Of a DNA stretch of 64,000 nucleotides, positions 30,982 through 36,121 are shown one piece after another (within the stretch, counting starts at the first letter, position 1; each line of letters opens with the position of its first letter). A program made the translations under genes and the position numbers. The DNA is from Bdellovibrionota bacterium. Lineage in GTDB: Bacteria; Bdellovibrionota_C; UBA2361; JBGSMV01. The stretch covers positions 32,001 to 96,000 of the forward strand of contig JBGSMV010000015.1 in assembly GCA_041739995.1 (NCBI GenBank), in the 5' to 3' direction. A model generated the notes under the pieces. That model made no database searches and was not told where the DNA came from. It saw only the letters and a list, made by a program, of their open reading frames with translations.

Positions 30982-31620
30982 TCAAAGGCCAAACTGACTC
31001 TCTCTAGGCTCCGAATCCGCTGAGCTCATCATAAGCTCACGTTCAAGAACTTCAGCACAATCTTCTAGAAGCCAGCTTAGAAGCCTTCCGTCCTCGCTAG
31101 TCTCTCCGATAATTGCGCCCGCTGCTCGCAAATGCGCTTGCGCTCGCACTCTTCTATCCTCGAGACCAGCCATCATGCCGATCGCCTCGCTCCCAGGAAT
31201 ATGCACTGGTTCTTGAAGGGCGTCTCTGCAGTCTGCAAGCCCGCTCAGTATTTCTTCCTTCGAATTCTCACTCCCCATACCACGCGACCTAGAAAGAAGC
31301 GCGTCTCTGCTTGACTCAGAACGCACCAGCGTCAGCTTGGGCAAGGGCCCCGGCATACGGCCCGATGCTTTTCCGCTACTTGTATGCACTAGGAGGCTTT
31401 CCGTCTGCGCATCTTGAGCGCTCTGAAATTCGCTCTGAAATTCGAGAGTACTGCGGCCCTTTGCATCGGAACCGCGCACCAGAGAAAGCAACGGCTTTGC
31501 CCTAACAATTACTCCCTTCACTGCTGAATTCCGGGTGGACATGCTCTCCGCTGCTTTCTTTGCCAAGAAAAGACTTCTCGTGATTCTGCGACCGTGTGGT
31601 GGGATAAAGTTCTCTCTCAT
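30982..31620 (-). CDS. Hypothetical protein
   Basis: GGGAG RBS before ATG 31620; the longer track ORF merely reads through the repeat. Confidence 0.55.
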   Translation of the reverse strand: MRENFIPPHGRRITRSLFLAKKAAESMSTRNSAVKGVIVRAKPLLSLVRGSDAKGRSTLEFQSEFQSAQDAQTESLLVHTSSGKASGRMPGPLPKLTLVRSESSRDALLSRSRGMGSENSKEEILSGLADCRDALQEPVHIPGSEAIGMMAGLEDRRVRAQAHLRAAGAIIGETSEDGRLLSWLLEDCAEVLERELMMSSADSEPRESQFGL

Positions 31621-31679
31621 CGAAGGACTCCCTGAATCAGGAACTAACCGCATCACTCGCTTTAAGTGCCACCGTGTCC

Positions 31680-31857
31680 ACTGAGCCCCTGCAAGACAAC
31701 ACGGGGCACCCGCAAAACAACACGGGGCACCCGCAAAACAACACTGAGCACCTGCTAGACAACACGGGGCGCCTGCAAGACAACACAGAGCTGCAAGACA
31801 ACACGGGGCACCCGCGAGACAACACAGGGCGCCCGCGAGACAACACGGAGTGCCCGC
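31680..31857. repeat. About 8 copies of a 21-bp tandem repeat CC(C/T)GCAAGACAACACGGGGCA
   Basis: Units at 31688, 31709, 31730, 31751, 31772 (short), 31791, 31811 and 31832; no spacers. Confidence 0.95.
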
Positions 31858-32093
31858 GGCCCAATAAGCAGAAAAGTTATCAAGCAAGCTGAAGTATCAC
31901 CGCAGAACCCTGCCCGACAACGGAGGCTAGGTTTAACTTAATTGAAGTAAGAGAATCAAGAGCAACATGCGTGTCGCTTGGAAATTTTGTAAGCGTTCTC
32001 GGGTTGTCTACAGATCACTGCAACGAAAGCTTAATTCCGTGTTGCCCCTAACGGGTCGATTTGCGGAGCAAATCGGGGGTGAAAATACTCTCC

Positions 32094-32270: not shown

Positions 32271-33257
32271 TTAGGAGCTTCGGCGTCTGAGTGGGATCAC
32301 TTTTGCTTCTCGCGGCAACGCGCTCCCCGTAGTTAAACTGCGCTGCTCTGAGGAAAGGGATCGCAAACTCCGATGGGGTACAGTTCCATTCGAAACAGCC
32401 CCATTCGAAACAGTCCCATGCGCAACTTCATTACCAGGAATTCGATTCTGGGCCCGTCGCACAAGTTCTGCGCCAGTGATTTGCTGGGAAAGTTTTGCCT
32501 CGCTCGAGGGATTCGCCCCCGATATCCCCTTGGAAAGCTGTACTGACGTCGAGCGCATGCGCGAAGCGACCTCGAAAGGGTTCCCCCCAAAAGCCTCGAA
32601 AGAGTTCCCCCCAAAAGAATGTCGCTCAATCATTGGCGTATCGCCACTAGACTCCAATGTGACAGAGCGAACAGATTGCTGATCTCGGAGGTCTCCTAAC
32701 AACGATCTTCCTCCGCCTTCTAACTTCGCTGTTCTATCGGACCGCATTATCGGGCTCGCACTAGCTGGGTTCGCACTGACAGAGTTCGCACCGACACCTT
32801 CCGGGCGCACTAGTGGAACTCCTGGCACGCCCGCAATTCCTTTAAGCGCTTCCTCTAGCTCGGAACATGCGGCAGATGCTGCTTGCGATCGCGCCTTAGT
32901 CGCCACCAACGTGCGGCTCACCAGCGCAGTACGAATGAAATCTCCGCGCTCAGCGGCAACGACGACCTCTCTGTGGCGCTGATTCAGTGCCGTTTCGGCT
33001 TCTCTAAATTCTGCAAGAAATCTGTCGCGGAGATGAGCGACCTGCATCGGAAGCTGTCTGGTGTGAGGTCCATCAAGCAAGGAAGTGAGCTGCTTCACCA
33101 GTTCAGCATTGACGAGCCTCCATGCAGCTGCCTGCATTTCTGTATACTCGGCAGCTTCCCCCTTCTGGGATCTCTCCATTGAAGAATACAGGCGATGAGC
33201 CTGGCGGCTGCGCTGCAATAGCATCAGCAACCGCGATCGAAATGTTTCTCCGTCCAT
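32271..33257 (-). CDS. Hypothetical protein (helical N-terminus, disordered C-terminus)
   Basis: 328-aa ORF ending 'AKVIPLRRRSS'. Confidence 0.7.
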   Translation of the reverse strand: MDGETFRSRLLMLLQRSRQAHRLYSSMERSQKGEAAEYTEMQAAAWRLVNAELVKQLTSLLDGPHTRQLPMQVAHLRDRFLAEFREAETALNQRHREVVVAAERGDFIRTALVSRTLVATKARSQAASAACSELEEALKGIAGVPGVPLVRPEGVGANSVSANPASASPIMRSDRTAKLEGGGRSLLGDLRDQQSVRSVTLESSGDTPMIERHSFGGNSFEAFGGNPFEVASRMRSTSVQLSKGISGANPSSEAKLSQQITGAELVRRAQNRIPGNEVAHGTVSNGAVSNGTVPHRSLRSLSSEQRSLTTGSALPREAKVIPLRRRSS

Positions 33258-33333
33258 GCGGTGCTAAGAGTAGCGCATGCCGCACAAATTTCAAAACAAT
33301 TCCGTACCTGTGAATATCCTGTGGAAAGATGCG

Positions 33334-33717
33334 TCATCCCTCGACTGTACTGGTTGAAGGCGCCGGCATGGCCCTCAAAAGTGCCGCTCGAATCCGACTC
33401 GCAGTTCGCACCGCGTGCAGTAGCACTCGTTTTTCAAAGCGGCTGCTTTGAGCCTCCGAAAAGTCACCGCGCCCGACCCACTCAACAACGCGAGGACACG
33501 AATTACGGTACTCACGCAGCGCCCCCACGATCGGCTCGATGCAGCTTGGATTCGCTTTTTCCAAGATCGCAACTGGCTGAAGGTTGAGTCCAATTTCAGC
33601 CCGTAAAGCGCTCTGTGGCTCCTCGGCGAGAACTCGGAGCGAGCCCAAAAGTCTCCGAACACCACGTTCGCTGAGGTCAGCCTGCACAGCGATTCTCCGT
33701 ATTTCTTCGTCCCGCAC
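33334..33717 (-). CDS. Hypothetical protein, possible N-terminal HTH
   Basis: GAGGGAG RBS before GTG 33717; 'IRRIAVQADLSERGVRRLL'. Confidence 0.55.
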   Translation of the reverse strand: MRDEEIRRIAVQADLSERGVRRLLGSLRVLAEEPQSALRAEIGLNLQPVAILEKANPSCIEPIVGALREYRNSCPRVVEWVGRGDFSEAQSSRFEKRVLLHAVRTASRIRAALLRAMPAPSTSTVEG

Positions 33718-34015
33718 AAGCGCTCCCTCAATCAAAATGCATAATGAAAACGTGGTCAGATGCTATTTTTGCCGTCATGACTGACCCATTTCACTCCGTC
33801 AATCAATGGAAACTTCATTCCACTTACAATCACCTCGAAGCTCTTTCGGCTGGCTCTTAAGTCTCGCGGTCGGGGGCCGCATCTCTCTGGGAAAATATTT
33901 CCCAAAGCGGCAAACACTCTCCCGGCCCCCGGCGAGATCTGCCGAACCGGTCCACGTGACCCTCTCGCCGATCCACTCGCGAAGCGTCTCAGCCGCCAGC
34001 ACGACAAAAGGGTCT

Positions 34016-34031
34016 TGGCATGAGCTTTGCT
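34016..34031 (+). promoter_or_regulatory. sigma54 (-24/-12) promoter
   Basis: TGGCATGAGCTTTGCT matches TGGCACG-N4-TTGCW (GG-N10-GC); palindrome TGGGAAA-ATA-TTTCCCA at 33888-33904 upstream. Confidence 0.7.
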
Positions 34032-34035
34032 TTTA

Positions 34036-34320
34036 AAGTCCCTACGCATTCGATGGTCTATCCCACGAAGGGCTAGTAGGGGCTTGCCGGGGTGTCCTCC
34101 GATACCACACACACACACACCTTCCCCGGCAGGTCTTGAGCGTCATTCAGGGTCCTTCTTTGCTCTACGCCTTCAAGGCTTTAGAGGGAAGATAGGTTGA
34201 CTCGCAACTGTCAAGGGCTTGCCCTGAAGCAGAATTGTCATGGAGACCACCGAAGGAGTGAGGTATTAGCAATTAAGCGGTGAAGCCGGCCACCTCTAAA
34301 AAAGGTGGTCGGCTTTTTTT
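34036..34320 (+). ncRNA. Candidate structured small RNA
   Basis: No credible ORF; a series of stems lies between the sigma54 promoter and a strong terminator. Confidence 0.6.
34283..34320 (+). terminator. Rho-independent terminator
   Basis: AAGCCGGCCACCT-loop-AGGTGGTCGGCTTTTTTT. Confidence 0.9.
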
Positions 34321-34361
34321 GTTCCGTGCAAGTTGTAGTAGGCTCTGACACCGTGGAAGCA

Positions 34362-35318
34362 ATGCTGCCCTCAACCCCAGATCGCCTCGTTATCAGCCGC
34401 CCCCCTGGTGGCGACTTCCTTCATGCCTTTATCCCAGCAAGCCGCGGCCTCCCCTCAAATAGGGTAGCAAAGGCAGCGCGTGCCAAGTTGCTGATCCCCT
34501 TTCACTGTGGGGCAGTAATCTGCGCGACTATCCTGTTTGTGTTCATACTCCCGACTTCGGGTAGCAGTCAGACACCCCCGACTTCGAGTGCAGACTCCGC
34601 TCGGGGTAGGACATGGCGCACAATCGCCCCTGATCTCGACCTCGGCGAGTTCCTCCCCGAGGGCTCCTTTCTTCAAGCGCCACTAGTCATGGTGAGGTCT
34701 AGTCTGGCGAAGACCAAGCTACGCCTCATTCGCTCTGCCGAATTTGGCCTGGCCCGAGCCGAGGTACGTTCACTTTGTCGCCTAGCGCATGCGAGCGCTT
34801 GTATTAACGCGAGCTTCTTTGATGAGTCTGGACACCCTCTGGGCTTGCTGATCAGTCGCGGCGTCGTGATTCAAAACATGCATCAAAAGGGAAGAACTCT
34901 TACCGGAGTGCTGCAAGTCACGCGCTTTGGTCTTGATGTGTTATCTCGTTCTCAGTTTCGCTCACACAATGTACTTGAAGCGGTACAAGCTGGACCTCGA
35001 CTTGCGATCGACGGAGTAGCCACTTCTGGACTAAAGAACGACTCCCGCACCGGACGAGCCGCGGTTTGTAGGGATAGAGATAACCGAGTGATCCTTGCGG
35101 CGAGTTCTGCCGGGTTGAGAGGCCTCACTTTCGAAGAACTGCAAGACGCGCTGTTGCATGAGTCAGTCGGCTGCGTGAACGCGCTCAATCTCGACGGAGG
35201 CGGGTCTGCTCAAATCTTCATTGCGCCACGCTCCTCCTCTTCATCCGATACCGCAGTAGCAGTCGCCATTAACGGATTCGATCCGGTGCCGGTTGCACTC
35301 GGAATTTTTGAAGAGTAA
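34362..35318 (+). CDS. Phosphodiester glycosidase (NAGPA) family protein
   Basis: 'INASFFD', 'AVQAGPRL', 'ALNLDGGGSAQ'; start uncertain. Confidence 0.85.
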   Translation: MLPSTPDRLVISRPPGGDFLHAFIPASRGLPSNRVAKAARAKLLIPFHCGAVICATILFVFILPTSGSSQTPPTSSADSARGRTWRTIAPDLDLGEFLPEGSFLQAPLVMVRSSLAKTKLRLIRSAEFGLARAEVRSLCRLAHASACINASFFDESGHPLGLLISRGVVIQNMHQKGRTLTGVLQVTRFGLDVLSRSQFRSHNVLEAVQAGPRLAIDGVATSGLKNDSRTGRAAVCRDRDNRVILAASSAGLRGLTFEELQDALLHESVGCVNALNLDGGGSAQIFIAPRSSSSSDTAVAVAINGFDPVPVALGIFEE

Positions 35319-35602
35319 GGCGCCAGCCTCCCTAACCCGAAAAGTTAAACGATTCCGTCAAGCTTTAAACTTGTTAAAATAAAGCGCTGCCAACCATAAA
35401 GGCCTGGCTTAAGAGCTCCGACCATTCATAGTACAACCACTTAGCGCAGCTAAATGTTTGCAATTACCGAGTTTTTAGAAAGATTCCGGATTGACAGTGG
35501 AGTGGTCCACGTTTAATTAACGTAAACTAACTGTCGAAGGGATATGGTATCACGTCGGTTGTGCCAGGCTAGTTAGGTAGGCCAGTGAGGTAGGGAGGTT
35601 CC

Positions 35603-36121
35603 GTGGTAAAAGAAGTCGCGGTTCAGGGAATTGAGATGCTCGATCGTGAATTTACTGCAAAGGACGTGCAGCTTATTCTTCGCGCGCTCACTCAGGGCGA
35701 AGAAAAGATTGGCCTTGCTCTTCTTAACTACTACGCAAGAACGAACCTGGTTCCTTCGACTGGAAAAAGTCGCTCACGCGGTCGAAGAAAGTATTCCTAT
35801 TCAGATCTTGTACTCCTCTGCTGGCTGTTTCGCATGAAGGGAGAAGGCCTTCCCGTAAATCGTTTCCGCAGAGGTATCGACTACCTCAGGAAACGGTTAC
35901 CCAAGCTCCACAAGAACCCAGCGGACATGGTAATGCTCACCGATGGGCGTCAGCTCTTCATTAAGCATCGCGTCGAAGATAGAGGCGAGATAGCAGAAGT
36001 GCTTACCGGCAAGCGCGCGGGGCAGTACGTCTGGGCCTACGCGATAGGTTCGCTAATCGAGGAAGTCGATCGAATCATCCTTGAACGCTTTGAGCCAGAA
36101 GTGGCAAAAGTTGCTGCTTAA
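35603..36121 (+). CDS. MerR-like HTH regulator
   Basis: GGGAGG RBS; 'FTAKDV...LLNYYARTNLVP...RRKYSYSDLV..FRMKGEGLPV'. Confidence 0.75.
   Translation: MVKEVAVQGIEMLDREFTAKDVQLILRALTQGEEKIGLALLNYYARTNLVPSTGKSRSRGRRKYSYSDLVLLCWLFRMKGEGLPVNRFRRGIDYLRKRLPKLHKNPADMVMLTDGRQLFIKHRVEDRGEIAEVLTGKRAGQYVWAYAIGSLIEEVDRIILERFEPEVAKVAA

Follow-up and report, generated by a model that had tools for sequence, protein, structure and literature searches.

A conserved family of putatively sigma-54-dependent small RNAs with an anti-Shine-Dalgarno-like loop in an order of Bdellovibrionota

Relation to described small RNAs

To our knowledge, there are only a few sigma-54-dependent small RNAs (sRNAs), among them Qrr, Pxr, GlmY and CrcZ, and each of them gates a major lifestyle switch. 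The Qrr sRNAs of Vibrio are Hfq-dependent, and the site of their activator LuxO reads TTGCA-N3-TGCAA. Alpha-proteobacterial sRNAs with an anti-Shine-Dalgarno (anti-SD) motif carry this motif in several hairpins, the promoters of CsrB, RsmY and RsmZ are GacA/UvrY-dependent, and RepG of Helicobacter pylori uses a C/U-rich loop for pairing with a simple-sequence repeat in the leader of its target. Pxr of Myxococcus and its relatives combines a sigma-54 promoter with a multi-stem-loop structure and is found in one lineage at one intergenic position, between nla19, a gene for a bacterial enhancer-binding protein (bEBP), and an NADH dehydrogenase gene; the pxr region measures 108 nt, and in some genomes there are tandem paralogs that each have a sigma-54 promoter of their own (PMC5568312). 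The anti-SD sRNA NfeR1 is linked to NtrBC in PMC10746234.

Here we analyse a 64,000-nt stretch of DNA from a Bdellovibrionota bacterium (GenBank assembly GCA_041739995.1, contig JBGSMV010000015.1, positions 32,001 to 96,000), hereafter the window, the positions of which serve as coordinates throughout; its source genome is referred to as G000 and the one congener of that genome as G001. Our subject is an element on the plus strand (34016–34320) that is very probably a real, conserved and previously undescribed non-coding RNA gene. It comprises a -24/-12 promoter preceded by palindromes, a helix (P2) closing a large loop with an anti-SD-like core and a CA tract, a short motif towards the 3′ end and an intrinsic terminator. 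The initial annotation, made from the letters of the window, had proposed a sigma-54-dependent, trans-acting structured RNA here, and all of the elements it named exist, within 1–2 nt of where it had placed them. Two features go beyond it: a second conserved motif, UAGCGAGG(U), and a fixed location just upstream of a NAGPA (phosphodiester glycosidase) gene in the same orientation. The RNA is a new family inside the known class of sigma-54-dependent sRNAs.

As far as we know, neither the CCUCCUU/CA loop nor the UAGCGAGG motifs are features of Pxr. The likeness to Pxr suggested in the initial annotation is nevertheless apt as an analogy, since a sigma-54 promoter, confinement to one lineage, a fixed syntenic site and, in genome G033, two tandem units all recall what PMC5568312 describes. 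This likeness does not amount to homology. There is no sequence or Rfam-level similarity to Pxr, as judged by the Rfam search; the neighbours here are two genes without known family and NAGPA, with the bEBP genes located on other G000 contigs; and the RNA is ~150–285 nt long, as opposed to the 108 nt given for the pxr region in PMC5568312. With the Qrr sRNAs and their LuxO sites the locus shares a sigma-54 promoter, a 13-bp upstream palindrome of 5-3-5 layout, a terminator at the end and paralogous copies. However, the half-sites here are GGCAA/TTGCC, Hfq is found in only one of the 91 genomes of the order, no Rfam family is matched and the RNA is two to three times longer.

The C/U-rich anti-SD motif in a loop is shared with NfeR1/ar14, but here it sits in a single large loop together with a CA tract, in a different phylum and without an Rfam match. 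As in CsrB, RsmY and RsmZ, an sRNA that ends in a terminator carries a short repeated motif in its hairpin loops, in a genome that encodes CsrA; the motif is, however, GCGAGG rather than GGA, it is present in only one to three copies per RNA and the promoter is of the sigma-54 type. Pairing of a (CA)n tract with (UG)n would have a possible precedent in RepG, which is unrelated in sequence and promoter. Unlike for RepG, no target combining (UG)n with a Shine-Dalgarno (SD) sequence was found in G000 (contigs up to C64) or in five relatives.

Conservation of the RNA unit at one syntenic site

The RNA unit occupies one syntenic site in 37 of the 91 genomes of the order and in 13 of its 21 families. 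Since promoter, palindrome, P2 with its loop and terminator are conserved together at this one site, the observation goes beyond chance. The same place in G001 holds the promoter CGGCACGGCACTTGCT, the near-identical loop UAUCCUCCGAUACCACACACACACAC, a GAGYGAGGUAU block and a terminator, while the helix closing the loop is changed on both sides (GGGGCGGGG/CUCCGCCCC versus GCCGGGG/CCCCGGC in G000) and ~50 nt of the central region are absent. Using as the first synteny anchor the 133-aa gene that forms the divergent upstream neighbour (33334–33735, minus strand), we found 11 loci in the order; in 10 of these the divergent upstream region contains a sigma-54 promoter, the CCUCC/CA loop, GCGAGG and a terminator. 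A degenerate loop pattern matched 21 times in 124 genomes of the phylum: the 12 matches with an upstream sigma-54 promoter are true members and the nine without one are chance, and a reversed-pattern control matched at a similar rate. The exact 18-nt loop word was rejected as a homolog finder, as it returned the congener plus chance matches in coding-like DNA (true loci: 1 of 2 in genomes, 0 of 3 in metagenome contigs).

P2 is a 7-bp helix in G000, with GCCGGGG (34086–34092) pairing with CCCCGGC (34124–34130) around a 31-nt loop, and is described by two covariance models, R1 and R2. MAFFT alignments of the full RNAs or of P2 misplaced the helix arms; R1 was built from three rows and re-aligned with Infernal. 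It recovered P2 in 12 of 12 known members and in none of 12 control loci (11 chance pattern loci and locus L013), and in its alignment 95.1% of cells are paired and six of the seven pairs change on both sides. In a 31-row alignment, which was fitted to the covariance model and in that respect favours structure, P2 is 92.6% paired, with compensatory changes at all seven pairs in 63 cells. None of 500 shuffles reach this level, and sliding the partners by 1–3 columns gives 31–53%. Independent full-length minimum free energy (MFE) folds form P2 in 22 of 23 RNAs; in these folds 80 of 92 CCUC nucleotides and almost the whole CA tract are unpaired. Covariation among collected homologs, which the initial annotation had named as a check on its proposal, is thereby present in P2. 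The same does not hold for the other internal helices it had listed: the first stem, the multibranch and AATTG/CAATT are lineage-specific and not conserved in G001.

The P2 loop measures 27–46 nt across the family. Its consensus in the rows of alignment A9 is (A/G)CCUCCUUGA-CCACAC(R)CACAC, then ...CUUC, with (A/G)CCUCCUU(G)A in most relatives. In G000 the anti-SD-like core CCUCC is at 34096–34100 on the plus strand (UCCUCC at 34095–34100; alignment A9), and the CA tract CC(AC)7C follows at 34105–34121 on the same strand, its (CA)7 run spanning 34106–34119. CACAC occurs 106 times in 33 RNAs, compared with 6.9 times in shuffles. The 16S rRNA of G000 ends in ...GGAUCACCUCCUUU, and the loop sequence (A/G)CCUCCUU(G)A is identical to this 3′ tail over up to 8–9 nt. 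AGGAG is found 157 times upstream of 1836 crude starts of open reading frames (ORFs) in G000, compared with 21 times inside ORFs. Because of the match to the 16S tail and the enrichment of AGGAG, the loop can be regarded as a near-complete copy of the anti-SD sequence in a genome that makes use of SD sequences.

The promoter, TGGCATGAGCTTTGCT (34016–34031, plus strand), has a single mismatch to TGGCAC-N5-TTGCW and is, as the initial annotation had it, near-consensus; the same element is kept across relatives. In 19 of the 23 first-found members, a site 53–107 nt upstream of P2 matches TGGCAC-N5-TTGCT at 10 or more of 11 positions, and the same promoter stands in 14 further syntenic loci. Strict TGGCAY-N5-TTGCW sites number only 17 in the 3.8-Mb G000 genome, with the RNA promoter among them. 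G000 encodes rpoN (Sigma54_DBD, 207.7 bits) and ~10 bEBP genes (10 strong Sigma54_activat matches), all of the latter on contigs other than that of the RNA. In genus g26 (loci L046, L049, L056 and L062 of G087, G086, G085 and G030, respectively) TGGCAC is kept and the -12 element is degenerate, with ATGT, GTGG or ATGA in place of TTGC and a short 5′ leader before P2; the promoter may be weakened or differently recognised in this genus.

Upstream of the promoter, a 13-bp palindrome, GGCAA-N3-TTGCC, is matched at 8 or more of 10 positions in 20 of 23 family members (a partly circular count; on average 1.4 and at most 5 in shuffles). The best site lies mostly 63–85 bp upstream of the -24 element, and a second site is often found near -105 to -130. 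A match of this quality accompanies only 8 of the 69 other sigma-54-like sites of G000, and a regulon search returned no other sigma-54-like site in that genome with two such upstream activating sequence (UAS)-like sites. In the window, site 1 is the inverted repeat TGGGAAA-ATA-TTTCCCA (33888–33904; core GGAAA-ATA-TTTCC, 33890–33902), 126 bp upstream of the -24 element, and site 2 is a weaker palindrome, GGCGAGATCTGCC (33931–33943), 85 bp upstream; both match GGCAA-N3-TTGCC at 8 of 10 positions. The UAS-like palindrome of the initial annotation corresponds to site 1 and is indeed an inverted repeat and one copy of the family palindrome, though of 7-3-7 layout and not a perfect 17-mer palindrome. 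Transcription of the RNA would depend on sigma-54 and a bEBP, with these palindromes as putative activator sites.

In sigma-54 promoters, canonical spacing from the GC at -12 sets the start. This spacing would place the transcription start near 34042 and, with the U-tract as the 3′ end, predicts a transcript of ~279 nt (34042–34320, plus strand). A first stem-loop, AAGTCCCTAC (34036–34045) with GTAGGGGCTT (34076–34085), appears in the MFE fold when folding begins at 34036 (34036–34085, plus strand). Since the predicted start lies inside this stem, its 5′ arm is probably partly upstream of the start and the full 10-bp stem is probably absent from the RNA. Further downstream on the plus strand, a central multibranch closed by TTCAGGG (34146–34152) and CCCTGAA (34222–34228), with inner hairpins, is seen in the MFE fold and is specific to G000; it is followed by a weak hairpin, AATTG (34233–34237) with CAATT (34270–34274), and by the terminator (34282–34320), in which a 14-bp stem with eight G-C pairs (34282–34316) and a 7-nt loop precedes U7. 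The strong terminator claimed in the initial annotation is therefore present. A terminator hairpin plus a run of 5–9 U closes the unit in all members whose sequence is not truncated at the end of a contig. The 5′ hairpins vary across the family, the first stem not being alignable with G001, and the central region is variable in both sequence and length and is largely deleted in G001.

The second conserved motif, UAGCGAGG(U), is present one to three times per RNA near the 3′ end, with the consensus A-N-U-A-GCGAGG-U-A. GCGAGG occurs 38 times in 33 RNAs, compared with 1.8 in shuffles (about 20-fold), and GCGAG is found in one to three copies per RNA, with two or more in 17 of 33 and the last copy 10–25 nt before the terminator. 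GUGAGG at 34258–34263, in the loop of the weak hairpin, is the G000 variant. The motif often lies in a hairpin loop; the signal for a helix enclosing the 3′-most GCGAGG is modest (mean longest stem 6.7 bp, 5.3 bp in shuffles). A kissing contact between the CCUC loop and GAGG was considered and rejected: by a hand tally, the flanking pair is complementary in 19 of 30 RNAs against ~18 expected, and G034, where the motif is kept without the loop, also counts against it.

The plus strand folds with -110.9 kcal/mol (z = -3.46), and none of 200 shuffles is as stable; the minus strand has z = -2.59. In agreement with the novelty proposed in the initial annotation, none of the 4227 families of Rfam 15 matched anywhere in the window at gathering scores, and with permissive filters 33700–34500 stayed without a match even at E ≤ 10. 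Searches of the full-text literature turned up no account of an RNA of this type, a result that holds for the literature covered. As for coding potential, none of the five ORFs of 35–120 aa that overlap the RNA matches a Pfam family at E ≤ 0.1, and the indels between G000 and G001 keep no reading frame across the element, which bears out the earlier statement that there is no credible ORF.

Model R2 matched 25 of the 91 genomes of the order at E ≤ 0.1, 23 of them true and two false by context; outside the order it had no match at E ≤ 0.05 in the 33 other genomes of the class. Its sensitivity is limited: at least nine canonical members were missed and later found by synteny. In 22 of the 23 true loci the divergent neighbour is a gene of the type that encodes 328 aa in G000 (32271–33257, minus strand), and the 133-aa gene is present in 10. 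Neither of the two has a Pfam, NCBIfam or PDB relative. The 328-aa protein has a helical N-terminal domain of ~140 aa; 85 of the 91 genomes encode this domain, in most cases once, and the gene is an order-wide one without known family.

The DNA upstream of this gene was inspected in 36 further genomes (16 loci and 20 regions), and this census added 14 units with a sigma-54 promoter plus terminator, in a first set of six (G088, G015, G019, G021, G020 and G025) and a second of eight (G003, G005, G036, G046, G009, G027, G012 and G034). Canonical P2 is seen in 32 of the 37 genomes with the unit; G088 has kept CCUCC and lost the CA tract, and the G027 unit is cut by a contig end. In families f7, f21, f19 and f3 the RNA is missing, as it is in the eight f8 genomes that were inspected, whose locus is rearranged; the other 28 f8 genomes were judged by R2 only and were negative apart from one false match. 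The RNA is also absent at the locus in G089, G014 and G007, where NAGPA directly follows. Conversely, G033 carries two complete, nearly identical tandem units ~700 nt apart (locus L064, G033:C56:6978-10023, minus strand; matches at 1501–1546 and 2196–2241), each with TGGCACAGCGATTGCT, P2, UAGCGAGGU and a terminator. A search of G000 for sibling RNAs, defined as the motif followed by a terminator, gave 28 matches against 32 in the control, and only the RNA itself stands out.

Proposed mode of action and competing explanations

An own promoter, an own intrinsic terminator and the lack of a conserved ORF are the general hallmarks of the sRNA class, and all three are found here. We tentatively favour, with a probability of roughly 45%, an Hfq-independent, enhancer-activated and independently transcribed sRNA that uses its anti-SD-like loop to act in trans. 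According to this proposal, an enhancer-binding protein at the GGCAA-N3-TTGCC sites, ~65–130 bp upstream, would activate RNA polymerase-sigma-54 at TGGCAT-N5-TTGCT, and the RNA would start near 34042 and stop at the intrinsic terminator at 34320. P2 would then hold open the anti-SD-like loop, kept single-stranded by the non-pairing CA tract, and the loop would pair with the SD regions of mRNAs and block 30S binding in trans. This would have to occur without Hfq, which was not found in G000 (91% complete).

Several observations weigh against this proposal. An RNAduplex scan of G000 (contigs up to C64) yielded no convincing target, and the best non-self match lies inside an ORF. Exact 11-nt complements of the loop, counted in five genomes with the antisense of the sRNA genes themselves left out, number 0–6 compared with 3–6 for the reversed control, and pairing of the RNA with the csrA leader is no better than background. 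The near-invariance of ~20 loop nt beyond CCUCC exceeds what a seed for SD pairing needs. The most persistent element of the family is UAGCGAG(G) and not the loop: the loop motif is absent in G021, G012 and G034, and G034 keeps the other motif without P2. Note also that the GGCAA-N3-TTGCC consensus was derived from the same sequences on which it was counted, which makes that count partly circular, and that one-mismatch promoter sites number four in the window against 2.6 expected. The promoter word is thus not significant in the window alone, and the case for it rests on the comparison with other genomes.

Alternatively, the RNA might be a protein-binding decoy, in which the UAGCGAGG(U) repeats, possibly together with the CA tract, sequester an RNA-binding regulator as CsrB/RsmZ do with CsrA and the loop is secondary. 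The roughly 20-fold enrichment of GCGAGG, the one to three GCGAG copies with two or more in about half of the RNAs (17/33), their frequent location in hairpin loops and their retention in reduced variants such as G034 are all in line with this, and CsrA is the one known global RNA-binding regulator that we found, present in 87 of the 91 genomes, often in 2–4 copies per genome (Hfq: 1/91). However, genomes that lack the RNA have CsrA just as often, which makes the presence of CsrA uninformative either way, one to three sites are few for a sponge, and no candidate binding protein is encoded beside the RNA, the neighbours being without known family. Since GGA is not enriched in the 33 RNAs (89 occurrences against 105.9 in shuffles; AGGA, 24 against 26.2), the signature of a classical CsrA sponge is absent and such a sponge is not supported. 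We consider a decoy unlikely. That the region is instead a short protein-coding mRNA or a functionless chance arrangement of motifs, as the overlapping ORFs of 35–120 aa and the non-significant promoter word in the window might suggest, is scarcely credible: no Pfam family is matched by these ORFs, the G000/G001 indels break every frame, what is conserved is a non-coding loop and a helix that shows compensatory changes, and 37 of 91 genomes keep the unit at a single locus.

The fixed position upstream of NAGPA keeps another explanation alive, in which the sigma-54 promoter drives NAGPA, the structured RNA and its terminator form a conditional, riboswitch-like attenuator and the short RNA is a by-product. 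The NAGPA gene (34363–35318, plus strand; Pfam PF09992, E = 1.1e-26) has its ATG 41 nt past the terminator, and a co-oriented homolog lies downstream in 20 of the 23 loci. The gap from terminator to NAGPA start is 27–41 nt in G000, G085, G086 and G087, which leaves little room for a separate NAGPA promoter and counts against an independently transcribed sRNA; it is below ~100 nt in most other loci, and a promoter scan of 33000–35500 found no sigma-70-like promoter. On the other hand, the gap reaches 303 nt in G083 and 354 nt in G001, where part of it is a 113-bp tandem repeat (L002 1032–1275; 2.2 copies, 88% matches) that is absent from G000, and in G004 and G017 there is no long co-oriented ORF downstream in the DNA examined. 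The tandem units of G033 each have their own promoter and terminator, and NAGPA is found without the RNA in G089, G014 and G007. Furthermore, the terminators are very strong, with no antiterminator pairing or conserved complement to the terminator 5′ arm seen by eye and no conserved complement to the loop seen by inspection of NAGPA leaders, and the combination of a large open loop of conserved sequence with short, recurring loop motifs does not resemble a ligand-binding aptamer. Taken together, a cis-acting leader of NAGPA appears improbable.

A more speculative variant of the anti-SD sRNA, to which we give little credence, combines the two single-stranded motifs. The RNA might be a sigma-54-induced mimic of the ribosome–mRNA handshake, its loop copying the 16S 3′ tail (ACCUCCUU) and its GAGG-containing UAGCGAGG loops copying SD sites. 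If this were true, the RNA would act globally and without Hfq, through competition with the 30S subunit for strong SD sequences, occupancy of the 30S anti-SD or titration of a factor that reads either sequence, and the CA tract would be an unstructured platform, possibly for binding a protein or nuclease.

The locus adds a well-defined sRNA family, known by a promoter, an activator-like site, a covarying helix and two conserved single-stranded motifs, to an uncultured bacterial group without a described riboregulator. It provides a handle for finding the bEBP that reads GGCAA-N3-TTGCC and the signal to which it responds, and it raises the question of how specificity is achieved by an sRNA with an almost full anti-SD sequence and no Hfq. 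It also helps to annotate metagenome-assembled genomes of the order, in which the locus now appears as an empty intergenic region. Should the RNA be only an ordinary SD-blocking sRNA, it would still be a solid, if unsurprising, addition to RNA catalogues.

Further features of the window

Downstream of NAGPA, a 172-aa ORF (35603–36121, plus strand) has a marginal match to a MerR-type helix-turn-helix (PF13411, E = 1e-4). In 11 of the 23 loci a co-oriented ORF in the corresponding place downstream of NAGPA belongs to one homology cluster, which has no G000 member. On the far side of the divergent genes, a 301-aa ORF without Pfam family (30982–31887, minus strand) contains a 21-bp tandem repeat of 7.7 copies (31691–31848) that encodes a repeated CCLAGAP-like peptide.

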